Shown piece by piece: positions 4,142 to 62,690 of a DNA stretch of 64,000 bases (its first letter is position 1; each line of letters starts with the position of its first letter). The notes under the pieces are model-generated. The model was not told the DNA's origin. It searched no databases and was given only the letters and a program-made list of their open reading frames with translations. Position numbers and translations under genes: made by a program. Source of the DNA: Desulfosoma sp. (lineage in GTDB: Bacteria; Desulfobacterota; Syntrophobacteria; Syntrophobacterales; DSM-9756); the NCBI GenBank assembly GCA_037481835.1, contig JBBFKW010000008.1:114512-178511 (forward strand), read 5' to 3'.

Positions 4142-5380
4142 ATGACGCTCTTTCAGATCATCTCCATCCTCATCACCGTTTCAGCGCTCTTCAGCTATAT
4201 CAACCACCGGTTCATCCGCCTTCCCACCACCATCGGGGTCATGGCCATCTCGCTTCTGGGCTCCCTGGGGATCGTGGCAGCGGGCCCCTTTTCTTTCGGA
4301 CTGCAGCAGGAAGCGATCCGGCTCGTTCGGAGTATCGATTTCGATGAAACCGTGCTCCACGGCATGCTCAGTTTTCTCCTCTTCGCCGGAGCCCTCCACA
4401 TCGACCTGGAGGCCCTGGCCCGCCGAAAGTGGATCATCGCCGTCCTGGCCACCGTGGGAACGGCCTTGGCAACGGCCCTGAACGGCCTGGGCACCTGGGT
4501 CGTGTCCCAATGGCTCGATTTGCAGCTTCCCTTTCTCAGTTGCCTTCTTTTCGGGGCCCTTATCGCCCCGACGGACCCCATCGCGGTGCTGGGTATCCTG
4601 CGAAAGGCGGGCGTTCCCGAAAGCCTGGAGACCAAGATCTGCGGGGAGTCGCTCTTCAACGACGGGGTGGCCGTGGTGATCTTCATCATCCTCTTGGAAA
4701 CGACCCGGGATCCCGCGGCCGCCACCCTGTCCCACGTCCTGAGTCTCTTCGCCAAGGAAGCTTTGGGAGGCATCGCTTACGGCCTCGTGATCGGATGGAT
4801 CGCCTACCTCATGCTCAAGAGCATCGACGATTACCAGGTTGAAGTGCTCATCACCCTGGCGCTGGTGTCGGGAGGCTATGCGCTGGCCGATGCGCTGCAC
4901 ATCTCCGGGCCCATCGCCATCGTGGTGGCGGGCCTCCTCATCGGAAACCCCGGCCGCATGCTGGCCATGTCGGAACGAACCCGCCGGCACCTGGACACGT
5001 TCTGGGAACTGGTAGACGAGGTGCTGAACGTGGTGCTCTTCGTGCTCATCGGCCTGGAAGTGCTGGCTCTCGACTGGACCCGCCTCCACCTGGCAACGGG
5101 GCTCCTGCTGATCCCTTTGGTCCTCGCCTCCCGGCTTGTGAGCGTGTCGGTCCCCGTGGCCCTGCTGCGGCCCTTCCGAAGGTTCAGCCCGGGGGTCATC
5201 CGAATCCTCACCTGGGGGGGACTTCGCGGCGGCATCTCAGTGGCCATGGCCCTCTCGCTGCCTCCGGCGGCCGCGCGGGACACCATCCTGGCGGCCACCT
5301 ACGTGGTGGTGGTCTTTTCCATCCTCGTTCAAGGCCTCACGGTGGAAAAGGTGGTGCGCTCTGTGGAAGAGCGCGTCTAA
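4142..5380 (+). CDS. Na+/H+ antiporter, CPA1/NhaP family
   Basis: Multi-TM protein with PTDPIAV, GESLFNDG and WGGLRGGIS. Confidence 0.92.
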   Translation: MTLFQIISILITVSALFSYINHRFIRLPTTIGVMAISLLGSLGIVAAGPFSFGLQQEAIRLVRSIDFDETVLHGMLSFLLFAGALHIDLEALARRKWIIAVLATVGTALATALNGLGTWVVSQWLDLQLPFLSCLLFGALIAPTDPIAVLGILRKAGVPESLETKICGESLFNDGVAVVIFIILLETTRDPAAATLSHVLSLFAKEALGGIAYGLVIGWIAYLMLKSIDDYQVEVLITLALVSGGYALADALHISGPIAIVVAGLLIGNPGRMLAMSERTRRHLDTFWELVDEVLNVVLFVLIGLEVLALDWTRLHLATGLLLIPLVLASRLVSVSVPVALLRPFRRFSPGVIRILTWGGLRGGISVAMALSLPPAAARDTILAATYVVVVFSILVQGLTVEKVVRSVEERV

Positions 5381-5417
5381 AAGACGATAAGGGGGTATTT
5401 TCATCGTAGCACTTATC

Positions 5418-5541
5418 GTAGCGCAGCCTCTCAGGGCTGCCAAAAGGGGCTTCGAATCATAAGGGTGACCCGTCCGCATGATCCGGGTATTCCAAGGGAA
5501 TCAGCAATCCCATTTCCGCTGGGCTGAAGCCCCGCGGCCAC
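5418..5541. repeat. Degenerate REP pair (family D)
   Basis: GTAGCGCAGCCTCTCAGGGCTGC at 5418-5440 and an inverted GTGGCCGCGGGGCTTCAGCCCAGCG ending at 5541. Confidence 0.5.
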
Positions 5542-5628
5542 GGAATGGGCGATCAATCCTTGGCCATGTCTGACGGAAGACTGTTTTTTCTTAAATGAGA
5601 CGATTCGTCCCAATCGCCGGGTTCCGGC

Positions 5629-5699
5629 GGGCGGGCATAAAGCCCGCCCCTACGAAGGCAGATGGACCTGTTCAGTAGGGGCGGGGTTGATCCCCGCCC
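5629..5699. repeat. Inverted REP pair (family B, GTAGGGGCGGG..CCCGCCC)
   Basis: 5629-5653 (-) and 5675-5699 (+), each GTAG plus a GC palindrome. Confidence 0.75.
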
Positions 5700-5844
5700 A
5701 CTAATCGCGCGGAAGTAAGAAGTAAGAAGAATACGGCGAAGGATTCGCTCCATTTAGGTCTTTACAAGTTAATGTGAAAGTCGCGGTTGGAATCCGGCAG
5801 GGCGGGACTTTCATGATTCGTTGTCTTGCCGGATATTGATCTGG

Positions 5845-5936
5845 GTTGGGGTTCGCTCCGCTCACCCCAACCTACGAGTTTATTGAACATTTTGGGCCGC
5901 CGACTGTAGGTTGGGGTGAGCGCAGCGAACCCCAAC
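5845..5936. repeat. Inverted REP doublet (family A, GTAGGTTGGGGTGAGCGNAGCGAACCCCAAC)
   Basis: 5845-5875 (-), 30-nt spacer, 5906-5936 (+). Confidence 0.9.
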
Positions 5937-6126
5937 AAAAACCGGGCATACGCTCGCACGTCTCGGTCTCACAACGAAGGATGAAACTCGAACCCCTGGA
6001 GCTTGTCCGAGAATCTTTTACATGAAAGTCTCTGTAACATACCGTAACTACAAGACTTTCATTCTTCGTTGTCACGGGCGGCCCGCCATGGGGGTCAATG
6101 TAAAAGAATGGCGCTCTCGGCGTCTT

Positions 6127-6176
6127 GTAGGAGCGGCCTCGGCAGCGAACCGCATCGCCGGGGAGCCGGCTCCTAC
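6127..6176. repeat. REPIN-like hairpin (family C, GTAGGAGC...GCTCCTAC)
   Basis: GTAG tetranucleotides at the outer ends of a 50-nt imperfect inverted repeat. Confidence 0.7.
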
Positions 6177-6287
6177 AGGGAAAACCTTCGCTTGTCCACA
6201 TCTTTCATCGATGCGGCGTGGCGAGCCTCGCCATGACCGTTAGGTCTTTACAAGCTTCGGGGCCACGGCTCGGCAAGGAGGAGTGGG

Positions 6288-7538
6288 GTGAGCGGTCGGG
6301 ATCCAGGGGGTCTTTCCAAGGGGCGATGGAGCGTTTTCGGCCTGTCGTCACTTCTCTTTATCCTCTCCCAGTTCTACCGGGTCTCCAACGCCATCATTGC
6401 CCCGGACCTGCAGAAGGACCTGGCGCTTTCCGCCGAGGAACTGGGGCTTCTGAGCGCCGCCTTTTTCTACGCCTTCGCTTTGGTTCAGGTCCCCCTGGGC
6501 ATCGCCCTGGACCGGTTCGGCGGCCGCCGGACCATGACCCTTCTTTCTCTCGTCGGGGCGGGAGGCGCCCTTCTTTTCGCCACCGCCCATTCCTTCGGAA
6601 CCGCTTTTGCGGGGAGGGCTCTTCTGGGACTCGGCATGGCCGGAAACCTCATGGGCTCCATGAAGCTCCTCACCCGCTGGTTTTCGCCCCGGGAATTCGC
6701 CACCCTATCCGGCCTCATGCTGGCCCTGGGAACTTTGGGAAACATGCTGGCGGCCACTCCCCTGGCCGCCGCCAAGGCAAGGATCGGCTGGCGGGGATCC
6801 TTCTGGGGTTTGGGGCTCTTTACGGCCGCCGCGGCCCTCTGCTTTTTCGCCGTGGTCCGGGAAAGGCCATCCCAGACCTATCCCCAGGCCGCCGCGGGCC
6901 CCCAGTCCGGGCCATCCTGGAAGGACGCCTTAAAAACCCTGTGCGGAAACGCCGACTATTGGATCATCTCGGCGGGAACTTTTTTTCGCTACGGGACCTT
7001 CGTGGCCATTCAGGGCCTGTGGATCGGCCCCTACATGATCCAACAGCTTCGGATGTCGGCCATTGCCGCCGGCAATCTGCTGCTGCTTCTCAACGTGGGC
7101 CTCATCTTGGGATCGCCCTTGGGCGGCTGGCTTTCCGATCGCGTGTTTTGTTCGAGAAAAAAGGTCATCGTGCTGGGGCTCGCCATGATGACGCTGGTGC
7201 TTTCGGCCCTGGCCGCCGGCTGGGGCGAAGCGGGCACGGCCGTCCTGGCGGTGCTTCTTTTCGCCTTCGGGCTTTTCGGGTCCTTCGGGATCGTCATGTA
7301 CGCCCACATCAAGGAACTCATGCCGTCGGACATGAGCGGAACGGCCCTCACGGGCATCAACCTCTTTACCATGCTGGGAGGAGCCGCCATGATGCAGGGC
7401 TTGGGGTGGGTGCTGGACCACGTGGGTCCCGCCGGGGCGCATGCCGGCCCCGACTACCGGCTGGCTTTCTTTTTGTGTGCCGCCGGAGTGGCCGTCGCCC
7501 TCCTGGGCTACCTCTCGGCGACGGACAGCCGGCCTTGA
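6288..7538 (+). CDS. MFS transporter
   Basis: About 12 TM segments; motif A GIALDRFGGRR; second-half GWLSDR. Confidence 0.9.
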   Translation: MSGRDPGGLSKGRWSVFGLSSLLFILSQFYRVSNAIIAPDLQKDLALSAEELGLLSAAFFYAFALVQVPLGIALDRFGGRRTMTLLSLVGAGGALLFATAHSFGTAFAGRALLGLGMAGNLMGSMKLLTRWFSPREFATLSGLMLALGTLGNMLAATPLAAAKARIGWRGSFWGLGLFTAAAALCFFAVVRERPSQTYPQAAAGPQSGPSWKDALKTLCGNADYWIISAGTFFRYGTFVAIQGLWIGPYMIQQLRMSAIAAGNLLLLLNVGLILGSPLGGWLSDRVFCSRKKVIVLGLAMMTLVLSALAAGWGEAGTAVLAVLLFAFGLFGSFGIVMYAHIKELMPSDMSGTALTGINLFTMLGGAAMMQGLGWVLDHVGPAGAHAGPDYRLAFFLCAAGVAVALLGYLSATDSRP

Positions 7539-24133: not shown

Positions 24134-25846
24134 GTGCTCAGTGAACTCGTGGTGCACAATTTCGCCATCATTTCACGCCTTCACGTGGCCTTTGATTCCG
24201 GTTTCACCGTGATCACGGGGGAAACCGGAGCCGGCAAGTCCATCCTTGTCGGGGCCGTCAACCTGCTGCTGGGGGGGCGGGCGTCCCAGGACATGATCCG
24301 AACCGGAGCCGACGAAGCCACCGTGGAGGCCCTCTTTACGTTCGACAATCCGAAGATCTTGGCCGAACGGCTTCAGGGTCTGGATGTGGAACCTTCCGCC
24401 GAACTCGTTATCAAGCGCACTGTCAGCCGCTCCGGGCGCAACCGCGTCTTCATCAACGGCCGACTCGCCACGCTGTCCCAACTGCAAGCCCTAGCCGTGG
24501 GGCTCATTTCCATTTCCGGACAGCACGAACATCAGGTGCTTTTAAACCCCGACATCCATCTGGACCTTCTGGACCAGTATGGCGGCCTGGAAGACGATGC
24601 GGCCCGCGTGGCCGAGGCCTACGCGCAATGGACTCAAAAGCTGGACGCCCTCAAGCGCCTCCAGCGAATGAAAGAGCAACGCCGGGAACAGCTGGACTTT
24701 ATGCGGTTTCAACTCCACGAATTGGAAGCCGCGCGGCTGGTTCCCAACGAAGACGAGGAGCTCCAAAATGAGCGGCGGATCCTCCAGCATGCGGCGACCC
24801 TTCATGAGGCCGCAGAAAACGCCCATCGGCTGATCTACCGCGAACACGGCTCCGTCATCGAAAAACTGGATGAAGCCGCCAGAAATTTGGAAACCATCGC
24901 CAGGATCGACCCCAGCCAAGCGCCCGCTTTGGACCATGTGGAACAGGCCAGGATCCACGTCCAGGAACTCAGTTATATGCTCCAGCAGTACCTTGGAGGC
25001 ATTCGTTTCGACCCGCAACGTCTTGCGGAAGTGGAAGACCGACTGGCCCAGCTCGCCCGTTTGGCCAAAAAGTACGGCCCCACCGTGGCGGACATGATTC
25101 GCACCCGGGACGAACTTCGCACGGCCTTGAGCGGGGATGCGGACGCGGATTGGGAAGAATCGGTCCTTCAAAAGGAAGCAGCCCGGGCCGAAGAACATCT
25201 CAGGGCCTTAGCCCAGGAACTTTCACGGCGGAGGCGTTCCGCGGCGGCACGGCTCCGCGGCGACGTGGAACAGGTCCTGGCCCGGCTGGATCTTCCCAAG
25301 GCGCGTTTCGATGTGCGGTTTTCTGGGGACGCGGACGTATCGGCGGAAGATTTTGCCGCCCAGATCACGGCCAAAGGGCTGGACCGCGTGGAATTCCTCC
25401 TTTCGGCCAACCCAGGGGAGGCGCTCAAACCCCTGGCCAAAGTGGCCTCCGGCGGAGAACTGTCGCGCATCCTCCTCGCCCTCAAAACGCTGCTCAGCGG
25501 CCAAGGGGAAGCGGAAACTCTCATCTTCGACGAAGTGGATGCGGGAATCGGAGGCCGCACGGCGGAGCTCGTCGGCCGCCAGCTGCAGGACCTCGCTCGG
25601 CGCTTTCAGGTGATCTGCATCACCCACCTGCCACAGATCGCCTGCTACGGTTCCCATCACTACCGTGTGGCCAAGGAAAGCGATCAGGACACGACCCGAA
25701 CCACCATCTCGCGGCTCGACCCTCAAGAGCGCATCACGGAATTGGCCCGCATGTTGGGCGGGGTCACCATCACTGAAAAAACCCTCGCCCACGCCCGCGA
25801 ATGGCTCGAACGCGCCCACCCTTCCGATCATGAGCCCTCACCATAG
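24134..25846 (+). CDS. recN: DNA repair protein RecN
   Basis: TGETGAGKS, GQHEHQ, ASGGELSR, FDEVDAG and ITHLPQIA. Confidence 0.96.
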   Translation: MLSELVVHNFAIISRLHVAFDSGFTVITGETGAGKSILVGAVNLLLGGRASQDMIRTGADEATVEALFTFDNPKILAERLQGLDVEPSAELVIKRTVSRSGRNRVFINGRLATLSQLQALAVGLISISGQHEHQVLLNPDIHLDLLDQYGGLEDDAARVAEAYAQWTQKLDALKRLQRMKEQRREQLDFMRFQLHELEAARLVPNEDEELQNERRILQHAATLHEAAENAHRLIYREHGSVIEKLDEAARNLETIARIDPSQAPALDHVEQARIHVQELSYMLQQYLGGIRFDPQRLAEVEDRLAQLARLAKKYGPTVADMIRTRDELRTALSGDADADWEESVLQKEAARAEEHLRALAQELSRRRRSAAARLRGDVEQVLARLDLPKARFDVRFSGDADVSAEDFAAQITAKGLDRVEFLLSANPGEALKPLAKVASGGELSRILLALKTLLSGQGEAETLIFDEVDAGIGGRTAELVGRQLQDLARRFQVICITHLPQIACYGSHHYRVAKESDQDTTRTTISRLDPQERITELARMLGGVTITEKTLAHAREWLERAHPSDHEPSP

Positions 25847-25875: not shown

Positions 25876-25935
25876 AATTCCAATCCTACGTATCCCAATC
25901 TTACATATCCCAATCTTGCTTATCCCAATTTTGCT
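25876..25935 (+). repeat. 4 x 15-bp tandem repeat (TATCCCAATCTTRCW)
   Basis: Units start at 25876, 25891, 25906 and 25921. Confidence 0.85.
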
Positions 25936-25949
25936 TCTTCTGATCTTAC

Positions 25950-26052
25950 GTAGGTTGGGGTGAGCGAAGCGAACCCCAACATTGCCATCTCGTCAGAAAC
26001 GCTCGGTCCGTTGAGGAACTGTCAAGTTGGGGTGAGCGAAGCGAACCCCAAC
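25950..26052 (+). repeat. Two direct family A REPs downstream of rayt
   Basis: 25950-25980 is intact; 26022-26052 has GTAG replaced by TCAA; both are followed by ATTGCCATC. Confidence 0.9.
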
Positions 26053-26059
26053 ATTGCCA

Positions 26060-26285
26060 TCCCCCACCCACCGTGCTCCAACAAACATGATCCACCCAAC
26101 CCCAACCCCTCATCCACCTCAATCCAACACCCCCTGATCCACCCACTCCAACATCCCTCATCGACCCTGCTCCAACAAACCCCATCCACCCAACCCCAAC
26201 CCCTAGTGCACCTCAATCCAAACCCCCTGATCCACCCACTCCAACATCCCCCATCCACTCTGCTCCAACAAACCCCATCCAATCC
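26060..26285 (+). repeat. C/A-rich higher-order tandem repeat (about 93-94 bp period, 23-25 nt subunits)
   Basis: TGCTCCAACAAAC recurs at 26074, 26168 and 26261; subunits ATCCACCC..CCAAC..CCC. Confidence 0.85.
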
Positions 26286-26291
26286 CAAGCT

Positions 26292-26819
26292 TCAACGCTC
26301 CCCAAAACTTCCCCCCAACTCGGGCACTCCCCCCCAATCCGCCGAAAGCCATCCTCGCTTCACAAAGGCGTGGAAGGTGGAAAAAGGCCAATCCACAACC
26401 CTCGCCACATATCCGTGCTTCACAGGGTTGTAGTGAATATAGGTGCAGTGGATTTCCAGATCTCGCTCATCGCGGATCATGTGTTCCCAATACCTGCGCT
26501 GCCAGAGGCCCCGTTCGCCTTTTTTCCGGCGGCTTTCAGAAATGGGTTCCGTGTTTGGAATACCTCTGGAAAAACCGGCCTTGATCATGGCCCATCGCGT
26601 AGCGTAATCGGCATCGCCCTGCGGCATGTGCCATATGGCGTGCATATGATCCGGAAGCACCACCCAAGCGATGATTTCGAAAGGATGGGCACGGCGGACG
26701 CGCCGGACCACGGTCCGAAGAAGTTCGATGTTTTTCGTGAGAAGATCGCTGGTTCTGTCTACAAGATTCAGCGTAAAGAAATAAGCGCCTCCAGGAACAA
26801 AGGCTCGACGATAGCGCAT
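26292..26819 (-). CDS. rayT: REP-associated tyrosine transposase (RAYT/TnpA-REP, HUH Y1), 175 aa
   Basis: MRYRRAFVPGGAYFFT, HUH motif LPDHMHAIW, WQRRYWEH and YIHYNPVKHG; flanked by REPs. Confidence 0.93.
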   Translation of the reverse strand: MRYRRAFVPGGAYFFTLNLVDRTSDLLTKNIELLRTVVRRVRRAHPFEIIAWVVLPDHMHAIWHMPQGDADYATRWAMIKAGFSRGIPNTEPISESRRKKGERGLWQRRYWEHMIRDERDLEIHCTYIHYNPVKHGYVARVVDWPFSTFHAFVKRGWLSADWGGVPELGGSFGER

Positions 26820-26861
26820 GGCGCTCTTCCTTTTTGGAGGAAGGCAAGGGTGGGGATGGGG

Positions 26862-27770
26862 AAAAACCGCGCCCACGCACCGACACCCCGGCACGGCGCC
26901 GCACCATGAAAGTCCAAGGCTTCCGCGCCTTCCCATCGATCGTCATGGAAGCATGCACGGATTTTCGTAGAAACTCGCACGGGTTTTCTATCCCACGGCT
27001 TTCGTGCAATCAGTTTAACGTTGGCGGGTGGTCATGGGAAAGTGGGCGGCAAGGAGAAAAGGGTCGGGGATGGGGAAATGTTGGGGTTCGCTGCGCTCAC
27101 CCCAACCTACATGTTTACATGTCGCCTCGGCGAGGCGGCGAACACGGAATGTCCGGCCGTCCCACACTCTGGGCCCGCCTTTCATCCTTCGGCCCGAAAT
27201 TCTGCAAAAAACCCGTAGGTTGGGGTGAGCGAAGCGAACCCCAACAAAAACCGCGCCCACGCACCGACACCCCGGGAAGGCGCCGCACCATGAAAGTCCA
27301 AGGCTTCCGCGCCTTCCCATCGATCGTCATGGAAGCATGCACGGATTTTCGTAGAAACTCGCACGGGTTTTCTATCCCACGGCTTTCGTGCAATCAGTTT
27401 AACGTTGGCGGGTGGTCATGGGAAAGTGGGCGGCAAGGAGAAAAGGGTCGGGGATGGGGAAATGTTGGGGTTCGCTGCGCTCACCCCAACCTACATGTTT
27501 ACATGTCGCCTCGGCGAAGCGGCGAACACGGAATGTCCGGCCTTCCCACACTCTGGGCCCGCCTTTCATCCTCCCTCCCAAAATTTTGCAAAAAACCCGT
27601 AGGTTGGGGTGAGCGAAGCGAACCCCAACCAAAACCGCGCCCACGCACCGACACCCCGGCACGGCGCCGCACCATGAAAGTCCAAGGCTTCCGCGCCTTC
27701 CCATCGATCGTCATGGAAGCACGCACGGATTTTCATAGAAACACGCACGGGTTTTCCATCCCACGGCTTT
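26862..27770 (+). repeat. About 2.4 copies of a 384-bp tandem repeat carrying REP doublets (BIME-like)
   Basis: CCGCGCCCACGCACCGACACC at 26867, 27251 and 27635; REPs at 27080-27110(-), 27215-27245(+), 27464-27494(-) and 27599-27629(+). Confidence 0.93.
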
Positions 27771-27782
27771 TGGGCGATCCGG

Positions 27783-28535
27783 TTAACGCGGCGAATCCTC
27801 CACAAGGCGGGGGACAAGGTCACCGGCCTTGCCGAGGAGGCTCACGTTAAAGGCTCGGCTGTAAGGGGTGGGTTCCAGGTTGATTTCCACGACGAAGGCG
27901 CCGTGTTCCTGGGCATAGAGGCCCATGGAGGCGGCCGGCTGCACAACACCGGATGTGCCGACAACCACCATGACGTCGCATTGCTCCAGTTTGCCGTAGG
28001 CCGTTTGGAGGACGGCGGGGTCCAAGGATTCGCCGAACCACACCACGTCGGGCCGCACCATGGCACCGCAGGCTTCACAATGGGGCGGATAGGGAATGGG
28101 CACGCGGCGGTCTTCCTTCTTCAGACCGCATCGGCTGCATCGAACCCACCAGATGTTGCCGTGGAGCTCCACGACGGCGAGGGAACCGGCGGCCTGGTGG
28201 AGCCCGTCGATGTTCTGGGTGAGCAGGACGAAATCGGGCGTTCGGTTTTCCAGGGTCACCAGAGCCTTGTGGGCTGGGTTGGGTTTCACCGACGCCAGGA
28301 CTTCGCGCCGATAGTTGTAGAATTCCCAAACCAACTGGGGATTTCGGGAAAAGGCTTCGGGTGTGGCCAGATCCGTCGCTCGGTATTCCCGCCACAGGCC
28401 TCCCGCCCCGCGAAAGGTGGGCACGCCCGATTCCGCCGAAATGCCGGCCCCGGTGAGCACCACGATCCGGCGGGCCTGCCGGATTTTTTCCCGAACCCGT
28501 GCGATGTCCTTCGCCACCTGATCCGGTCGACTCAC
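27783..28535 (-). CDS. cobB: NAD-dependent protein deacylase (Sir2 family)
   Basis: TGAGISAESGVPTFRG, TQNIDGLH, HG, CxxC..CxxC and RPDVVWFGE; GTGA overlap with the upstream gene. Confidence 0.95.
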   Translation of the reverse strand: MSRPDQVAKDIARVREKIRQARRIVVLTGAGISAESGVPTFRGAGGLWREYRATDLATPEAFSRNPQLVWEFYNYRREVLASVKPNPAHKALVTLENRTPDFVLLTQNIDGLHQAAGSLAVVELHGNIWWVRCSRCGLKKEDRRVPIPYPPHCEACGAMVRPDVVWFGESLDPAVLQTAYGKLEQCDVMVVVGTSGVVQPAASMGLYAQEHGAFVVEINLEPTPYSRAFNVSLLGKAGDLVPRLVEDSPR

Positions 28536-29308
28536 AGCCCCCCTCCTTCGTCCAAGGATCGGAAAATGTCGTAGATGTCCAGTCCGAGGCGCCGAAATCC
28601 TTCCAGCCCGTAGACCATGTTGGCTTCCAGCACCCACCAACGGCCTCGGGCATGGCAAAGATCCAACCCCACCTCGTCGAACCGACACACCCTCGCCGTC
28701 CATCGCGCGAACTCCAGGGCCTCGTCCGGCACGGCGTCGAAAGAGATGGTCCCACCCCGGGACACATTGTTTCGGAATTCTCCGGGCCGGGCAATGCGCC
28801 AATAGGCGTGGACCACTCGGCCGGCGATGAGCACCACGCGCAGATCGCGGTCGATGGGAAGGTATTCTTGGATGTAGGCCGGGTGGTGGTGGGCGAGGTA
28901 GCGGCGCAGGTCCTCTTCCGTGCGAACCAGCCAGACCCCTTCCCCTTGGGACGACCCCACTGGGTTTTTGGCGATCATGGGATAGGAGAAATTATCCAGG
29001 ATCCGGGACAATCTGTTCGAGCCGTAATAGAGTCGCGTGCGGGGATGGGGAACATCCAGCAACTGAAACAGGGCCGTCTGGCGGATCTTATGGCCCATGA
29101 ACCTGTAGTAATTTCGAGGGAAAACCTCCTTGCCCACGGAACGGAAAAGGTCTTCGTAGAGCCGGCTTGGATAGTAGACGACGGGGCTCCGGACCAGCTC
29201 GCATCGAATCTCTTCCGGGTAATCCCTCCAATTGGGCTGCACCCCCACGCACCGAAAGGAGCCGCACCGGCGAAGGCGCTTTCCCAAAGACAGGCGTTGT
29301 TTCGACAT
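28532..29308 (-). CDS. RimK-like ATP-grasp ligase
   Basis: GSSQGEGV, YIQEYL, DLRVVLI, FRNNVSRGG and VLEAN. Confidence 0.88.
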   Translation of the reverse strand: MSKQRLSLGKRLRRCGSFRCVGVQPNWRDYPEEIRCELVRSPVVYYPSRLYEDLFRSVGKEVFPRNYYRFMGHKIRQTALFQLLDVPHPRTRLYYGSNRLSRILDNFSYPMIAKNPVGSSQGEGVWLVRTEEDLRRYLAHHHPAYIQEYLPIDRDLRVVLIAGRVVHAYWRIARPGEFRNNVSRGGTISFDAVPDEALEFARWTARVCRFDEVGLDLCHARGRWWVLEANMVYGLEGFRRLGLDIYDIFRSLDEGGGL

Positions 29309-62598: not shown

Positions 62599-62690
62599 GT
62601 TGGGGTTCGCTTCGCTCACCCCAACCTACGCCTCGGCGTCCCCATTCTCCAACAACCTCGTAGGTTGGGGTGAGCGAAGCGAACCCCAAC
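62599..62690. repeat. Inverted REP doublet (family A)
   Basis: 62599-62629 (-), 30-nt spacer, 62660-62690 (+). Confidence 0.9.

Follow-up and report, generated by a model that had tools for sequence, protein, structure and literature searches.

A tandem array with filled and empty REP-doublet junctions beside a RAYT gene in Desulfosoma sp.

The RAYT locus and its intergenic array

In the genome of Desulfosoma sp., a gene for a REP-associated tyrosine transposase (RAYT; 26292..26819, minus strand, 175 aa) lies between a recN-like gene on the left (24134..25846, plus strand; Pfam SMC_N, 9.6e-19, and AAA_23, 1e-14) and a sir2-family deacetylase gene on the right (27783..28580, minus strand, with a provisional start; Pfam SIR2, 3.9e-55). 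All positions are those of the window, by which we mean the whole 64,000-nucleotide stretch of DNA that was analysed. The RAYT protein has the Y1/HUH transposase fold and matches both the curated RAYT equivalog NCBIfam NF047646 (1e-60, 203.9 bits against a cut-off of 80) and Pfam Y1_Tnp (27.5 bits, cut-off 23); an H-x-H motif and a downstream Tyr, at what we take to be the motif positions, can be discerned in its translation. A longer, 214-aa open reading frame represents an upstream extension, and the start of the rayt gene was corrected to 26819. The gene is single-copy, with one match in its own genome (designated G000), and has that genome's REPs on both sides (25954, 26026; 27080 onward). 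Those on its 3' side are two REP(+) copies on the plus strand, each with an exact match to the 27-nt core, one carrying its own GTAG (25950..25980) and the other without it (26026..26052). Other repeats occupy the same side of the gene: C-rich tandem repeats (26058-26281; 2.4 copies of 94 bp at 89%, in which a 24-bp sub-period is apparent) lie between the second REP(+) and the RAYT 3' end, and a 15-bp x 3.8 repeat (25880-25936) sits just past recN.

A 384-bp array (2.4 copies) and an extra partial unit make up the entire sir2-RAYT intergenic region, which they fill from a point shortly upstream of the ribosome-binding site of RAYT as far as the sir2 stop codon. Tandem Repeats Finder placed the array at 26862-27788, with a period of 384 bp, 2.4 copies and 96% matches. 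Read along the plus strand, the region opens with X0 (26846..26861, AAGGGTGGGGATGGGG), which begins 26 nt beyond the RAYT start codon (26819) and is the left flank of an empty junction: a 159-nt tail, Y1 (26862..27020, starting AAAAACCGCGCCC), abuts it directly, with no doublet between the two. Next comes Yend1 (27021..27058), a 38-nt segment between Y and X that is found only at the two internal unit junctions, followed by X1 (27059-27075, 17 nt, AAGGGTCGGGGATGGGG), which together with AAAT occupies 27059..27079. The first doublet, D1 (27080..27245, 166 bp), consists of REP(-) (27080-27106), CTAC, a 104-nt spacer, GTAG and REP(+) (27219-27245). The same order then repeats on the plus strand as Y2 (27246-27404), Yend2 (27405-27442), X2 (27443-27459, again AAGGGTCGGGGATGGGG), AAAT (27460-27463) and the second doublet copy, D2 (27464..27629, 166 bp), which also matches the core. 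A third, partial tail, Y3' (27630..27788, plus strand), closes the array, its homology stopping 6 nt within sir2 (stop codon 27783-27785). This is the layout of a tandem REPIN cluster, with flank-REPIN-flank units adjoining RAYT and an array that ends 26 nt from the RAYT start.

The first-pass annotation had claimed that the same flanks occur with and without the doublet within this one locus. The aligned junctions bear this out: in an affine-gap alignment, the empty junction differs from either filled junction by one 170-nt gap, corresponding to AAAT and the 166-bp doublet, and Y is identical for at least 28 nt past the junction. Direct re-reading of the junctions also confirmed the coordinates given there. 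X0 matches X1 and X2 at 16 of 17 positions, X1 and X2 being identical to each other and having one extra C, and the first base of Y is A after D1 and C after D2. The left-flank match is not a product of chance, since at no more than one edit X0 occurs three times on both strands of the 3,629,418-bp genome, every time at this locus. In whole-genome searches, Y and the 104-nt spacer had no copies beyond the locus, the other BLAST matches being 15-16 nt long with E values of at least 0.14. Likenesses of X to the 5' half of the REP (9/17) and to the junction of the empty composites described below (12/17), both noticed by eye, were set aside as falling far below the 16/17 shared by X0 and X1. Inside Y3' there is also a 22-nt direct repeat (27711-27756; 2.1 copies, 87%), with a matching stretch in Y1 and Y2.

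A simple scan of 26700-27900 detected no sigma-70-like promoter, and an Rfam search of the locus returned hairpin look-alikes only, all far below threshold. On the minus strand, a weak terminator-like hairpin with a T run is present at each Y start (26869-26886, 27253-27270 and 27637-27654), and these hairpins are positioned between sir2 and RAYT. The repeat unit takes in the stop codon and last codon of sir2 (27783-27788). By our own reading, the sir2 orthologue of a sister species (G003) is two codons longer (L002:41-60), and the sir2 C-terminus may have been remodelled by the repeat.

We compared the locus across 41 genomes (40 relatives and G000), among which only sir2 is conserved, its orthologues in the relatives being 64-86% identical. 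Matches to the RAYT protein reached at most 64% identity among 80 of 585 confirmed metagenome loci and at most 67% among 78 of 591 confirmed genome loci, and a 27-nt Y pattern had 0 matches in metagenome contigs and 0 in genome contigs. At these identities the RAYT loci were left out of the comparison of strains. In the congeners G001 and G002, recN and sir2 are 29 and 11 kb apart, and neither REP nor RAYT was found in these two genomes. The sister species G003 has the same REP, with at least 20 matches; the recN contig and the sir2 contig of this species each terminate within a REP (L013:1-290, L002:1-47). RAYT was not found in the G003 assembly, which is 95% complete, and the RAYT locus of this species is probably unassembled. 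Another member of the same family, G006, has four RAYT paralogues within 25 kb (C1:733145-757506, L020-L023), one elsewhere and one distant weak match, the paralogues being 52-62% identical to the present RAYT.

The REP family, the unusual doublet and the recurrent tails

The 27-nt REP core has 15 matches in the window against 0 expected, and 193 cores with at most 3 mismatches are distributed over 117 clusters genome-wide. In the genomic flanks, GTAG precedes most REP copies. The family thus combines a short imperfect palindrome, a GTAG foot and high copy number, the features of GTAG-tagged REPs. Adjacent (-,+) REP pairs with their GTAG feet inward number 35 in the genome, and the gap between their cores is 38 nt in 16/35 and 20-45 nt in 29/35; a 112-nt core gap belongs to D1 and D2 only. 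Apart from its two copies in D1 and D2, the 104-nt spacer has no match in the genome. Like those of a REPIN, the two inverted REPs of the doublet pair into one long hairpin with a 31-pair stem; unlike a REPIN, the doublet is not represented by many near-identical copies at a fixed REP-to-REP distance. The 112-nt rather than modal 38-nt gap, together with a locus-unique spacer that contains a second repeat module, led us to reject the idea of an ordinary mobile REPIN: the D doublet has the orientation of the family but is not a standard copy.

Sorting the REPs by their GTAG-distal flank revealed two recurrent tails, T1 (about 150 nt, with AAAAA at its start) and T2 (about 70 nt, containing a hairpin). 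These commonly form a composite in the order T2 (reverse), REP(-), 30-nt linker, REP(+), T1, which measures about 315 bp at window position 5765-6090 (G000:C8:120276-120600) and recurs at about 16 other loci. Seventeen T1 copies are nearly full length, and five have near-identical profile scores (three of 158.2 bits and two of 151.2 bits), which suggests that the composite, rather than the bare doublet, spread recently. The nhmmer T2 profile also detected a T2-like module within the spacer of D1 (27126..27185, plus strand; E 5.3e-6, 2.4 kb searched) and of D2 (27523-27569; E 2.3e-6). Close to the T2 module, some 60 nt of sequence (L184:842-912, G000:C15:121441-121511) match many places in G002 (about 14 of its 25 matches) and a few in G001. 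Because these matching congeners lack REP and RAYT, that hairpin module may be an older, independent repeat family.

The Y tail itself bears a resemblance to T1. In an anchored PWM comparison, the first 60 nt of Y1 are T1-like and in register with the expected REP(+) end. On T1 columns 9-60, which exclude the shared AAAAACCG, Y scored -17.4 and its shuffles averaged -75.8 (sd 14.8); the score of Y was reached by 5e-5 of 100,000 Y shuffles and by 3e-5 of about 200,000 random 52-mers from the genome. Of 61 offsets tried, Y1, Y2 and Y3 each scored highest at offset 0, and among REP flanks Y ranks right behind the recognisable T1 copies. Global alignment of Y to the T1 consensus gave a z of about 3.4, or about 2 when the first 8 nt were removed. 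When the locus was searched locally with the nhmmer T1 profile, there were no forward-oriented matches on Y (the strongest, at E 0.025, were on the opposite strand and elsewhere in the unit), and the relationship between Y and T1 is therefore based on the anchored test. On this similarity in sequence we interpret Y as a T1-type tail that has diverged strongly; this is the weakest link in the argument about direction that follows.

Origin of the filled and empty junctions

That the tandem structure or the empty junction does not exist in one molecule, and instead reflects an assembly artefact or a mixed population, seems extremely unlikely to us. The genome is a draft of 38 contigs, 384-bp repeats at 97.7% identity are hard to assemble from short reads, and the G003 contigs break at REPs at the same locus. 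However, each junction in the array has unique sequence (RAYT 5'-X0-Y; Y-Yend-X-AAAT-doublet; doublet-Y; Y3'-sir2), and because X0 differs from X1 and X2 by an indel, the assembly implies that both junction types must exist in the reads. What could then still be misassembled is the number of copies (1.4 or 2.4 or more).

Between units 1 and 2 there are 9 differences in 384 positions (97.7% identity): two are adjacent in Y, and the other 7 fall among the 104 positions of the spacer in D1 and D2, as two singles and a cluster of five. Y1 and Y3' have 5 differences in the first 141 positions and 5 in the next 18, with no homology from position 160. On these comparisons, the simplest order would be an older duplication that produced two X..Y copies, followed by a later duplication of the block Y-Yend-X-AAAT-D. 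A plain tandem duplication predicts Yend to the left of X0, where it is absent; pairwise alignment found no homology to Yend left of X0 or right of Y3', and there is no other copy in the genome. Candidate homologies of Yend with the RAYT 5' region or the sir2 3' end were discarded, as they reached at most about 60% by eye and the aligner placed nothing. The doublet missing from the RAYT-proximal unit lies outside the 384-bp block that was duplicated later, and this leaves no order between the loss and the last duplication. The first-pass annotation had proposed the gain or loss of a doublet followed by tandem amplification. Amplification of the filled unit agrees with our findings, the last step being duplication of the 384-bp block Y-Yend-X-AAAT-D with 9/384 differences; of the proposed order, what the sequences show is the first duplication preceding the last.

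The genomic T1 copies provide a standard for judging which junction came first. An nhmmer search gave 45 T1 matches in the genome, and 21 of these reach model position 3 or lower. A canonical REP(+) adjoins 19 of the 21 T1 starts and a degenerate REP one more, and the remaining start is preceded by a REP at a distance of 24 nt, leaving none without a REP; Y1 is the sole tail that keeps the AAAAA start with no REP nearby. Because Y is T1-like and T1 starts directly follow REP(+) elsewhere, the filled junction is the family-typical one, and it is probably ancestral. Two other composites, at C15:121604 and C18:101597, lack the doublet and join T2 (reverse) to T1. Both have kept the first 7 nt of REP(-) (GTTGGGG) but not the opening 6-7 nt of T1, and their breakpoints fall within a direct repeat, TGGGG, away from the REP ends (G000:C15:121520-121690, G000:C18:101520-101690). 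Judged by their sequence, these junctions resemble deletions between short repeats, unlike an unoccupied target. Orthologous sites in the nearest species support neither loss nor insertion. At the sites orthologous to C15 and C18, G003 lacks the whole composite, and no direction can be read from them; for window 4900-6900 there is no orthologous match in G003. The canonical 38-nt-gap doublet at 62599-62690 is absent, with about 44 flanking nt, from the corresponding G003 spacer (G003:C37:33748-33952), and this doublet has a near-identical paralogue with the same flanks at G000:C7:203269.

If the doublet had instead been inserted, the ancestral arrangement would be X on Y, the doublet would have entered one copy of an older duplication, and the filled unit would then have been duplicated. 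This history involves the same number of events as loss, the edges of the insert are complete REPs, and REPINs are thought to be mobile (PMC3116915). However, it requires that the REP(+)/AAAAA-tail junction seen at 19/21 T1 starts was re-created by chance, and on a T1-like tail that happens to be in register. It also lacks a donor or sibling, as there is no second copy of the doublet or its spacer to supply one beyond the array, and the typical doublet gap in this genome is 38 nt rather than 112 nt. The adjacency of REP(+) and tail, the donorless doublet and the two other doublet-less composites together favour loss strongly over insertion. Insertion, which the first-pass annotation had offered on equal terms with excision, we consider improbable, given that the tail family to which Y belongs as a diverged copy stands directly behind REP(+) elsewhere.

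How the doublet could have been lost is suggested by its fold. As single-stranded DNA, D1 and its flanks form a 31-pair hairpin (14 + 17) of -63.2 kcal/mol (z -7.4), and 0 of 200 shuffles were as stable. The hairpin base pair T27079-A27246 falls exactly at the breakpoints; each side carries an AAA (within AAAT and AAAAA), and the deletion therefore has four equivalent placements. Direct-repeat endpoints at the base of a stable hairpin are what a hairpin-assisted or slippage deletion would produce. With modest confidence, we regard deletion of the doublet from the RAYT-proximal copy by a host hairpin/slippage process as the best explanation overall. Hairpin-mediated deletion had been mentioned as an alternative in the first-pass annotation, and with breakpoints at the base of the 31-pair hairpin, in an AAA repeat, it turns out to be the better fit. 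From these observations we infer the direction of change (loss), a host rather than a RAYT mechanism, and the order of events. The original plus-strand spacer would have contained, in order, the RAYT ribosome-binding site, X, AAAT, the REP(-)/REP(+) doublet, the T1-like tail Y and the sir2 stop. Tandem duplication of the X-to-Y stretch of this spacer would have come next, after which the RAYT-proximal copy would have lost 170 nt, namely AAAT and the doublet. In single-stranded DNA, the paired REPs of the 31-bp hairpin would bring the flanking AAA(T) and AAAA runs together, allowing clean removal either by replication slippage across the hairpin base or by host-nuclease cleavage of the hairpin and microhomology repair. 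A later duplication of the 384-bp block Y-Yend-X-AAAT-doublet would account for the 2.4 copies present today. Among the points against a host deletion, a microhomology of 3 nt is short, and the excisions seen in Pseudomonas fluorescens reads were taken by the authors as RAYT intermediates (PMC3116915). What we present below on cleavage specificity nonetheless favours the host process.

The principal alternative is that the neighbouring enzyme, encoded 46 nt away, cut single-stranded DNA on either side of its own upstream doublet and resealed the donor, leaving the empty junction and releasing the doublet in hairpin or circular form with AAAT as a short 5' tail. A Y1 enzyme makes both of its cuts on one strand. 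The TnpAREP of E. coli is described as cutting C|T near REPs (PMC3333891), and a Marinomonas enzyme as cleaving at CT or CA under GTAG selection (PMC8266576). By this rule, which was derived from enzymes of other species, excision calls for C|T or C|A at both breakpoints on one strand. In our own reading of the junctions, the left cut can be G|A, A|A or A|T only, on either strand, and the right cut can be C|A. Because the breakpoints misfit two C|T cuts, we favour host hairpin/slippage deletion over RAYT excision. A bona fide single-copy RAYT does adjoin the junction, and the missing piece is a complete doublet with a 1-4 nt 5' tail. Such an asymmetric 5'-tailed hairpin is the form that Bertels and Rainey found excised in reads (PMC3116915), and among the places where E. 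coli TnpAREP cuts is likewise the side of an inverted REP that is distal to GTAG (PMC3333891). Against this stand the unsuitable left cut, which leaves no strand with a C|T or C|A site at both breakpoints, and the other two doublet-less copies, which break in a direct repeat as slippage predicts. To our knowledge, RAYT-driven excision has also not been reconstituted in vivo, and on balance we judge it unlikely here. It is quite unlikely that the empty junction is a RAYT-resealed donor and that the 384-bp amplification was primed by the same enzyme as well, along the lines of the rolling-circle-like amplification of BIMEs proposed by Ton-Hoang et al. (PMC3333891). If RAYT had both excised and amplified, the two halves of RAYT activity would be preserved at this locus as a fixed, natural record, and the enzyme would have a cleavage specificity other than C|T. 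Alternatively, a fork stalled at the hairpin could have made two template switches in one complex replication event, generating the duplication and the doublet-less copy together with the 38-nt Yend as junction filler. This would explain both the 38-nt segment at the unit junctions and a left edge of the array that lies only 16-20 nt from the point of the missing doublet. A search of the genome, however, turned up no template for Yend, and on the sequences compared here such an event looks no different from sequential ones; we give this scenario little credence.

Relation to known REP systems

The closest parallel is in P. fluorescens SBW25, where tandem REPIN clusters with their flanks lie beside each RAYT gene and whole doublets are lost; excision there is documented by single reads only in three cases and by 200 reads in a fourth, which involved a GII doublet (Bertels and Rainey, 2011; PMC3116915). 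As in those clusters, the REP doublets here form long hairpins, are repeated in tandem with their flanks, adjoin RAYT and are lost as a unit. Compared with SBW25, the present array differs in having one doublet-less unit, with filled and empty states side by side in one assembled genome, and in a doublet with a long unique spacer (112-nt core gap) that carries another repeat module. In E. coli, BIMEs and the REPtron show variable tandem copy number, for which a model of excision and amplification has been put forward (Ton-Hoang et al., 2012; PMC3333891). The Desulfosoma REPs share with BIMEs the alternation of REPs and conserved motifs in mosaics, and with the REPtron a Y1 transposase gene between its own REPs. 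The flanking modules here are much longer than BIME linkers (T1 about 150 nt, T2 about 70 nt), and the breakpoints misfit the C|T rule mapped for the E. coli enzyme.

Inverted repeats can also be deleted by hairpin-assisted slipped mispairing or by SbcCD (Sinden et al., 1991; Connelly et al., 1999, both as cited in PMC3733652), and the instability of long REP-dimer hairpins is discussed in the same article (PMC3733652). The present locus shares with such deletions, as summarized there, a long palindrome with a perfect stem, a short direct repeat and endpoints at the base of the stem. It departs from them in that the direct repeat is only 3 nt and the junction is a natural fossil, not a measured rate.

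IS200/IS605 elements move by 'peel and paste', a single-strand transposition in which an HUH/Y1 enzyme acts on subterminal hairpins and the donor is precisely resealed, with no target duplication (summarised in PMC8266576). The lines of resemblance to the present locus are a related HUH/Y1 enzyme, hairpins, precise resealing and the lack of a target duplication. Unlike in those elements, RAYT lies outside the element here, and the guide-matched motif is missing at one required cut site.

The locus neatly exemplifies behaviour that is already known and does not represent a new kind of element: both tandem REPIN clusters next to RAYTs and excisions of REPINs have been published. What it adds is a single molecule in which a filled and an empty state of one junction are both fixed, and REP doublets that are nested in longer mosaics. 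The movement of REPs and REPINs and the role of RAYT in cells are unsettled, and the published evidence for excision, in the portions of that work drawn on here, amounts to a few sequencing reads. The side-by-side junctions provide exact substrates and an exact expected product with which RAYT action could be separated from host hairpin processing, and the nesting of doublets in mosaics matters wherever REP ends are taken as element ends.
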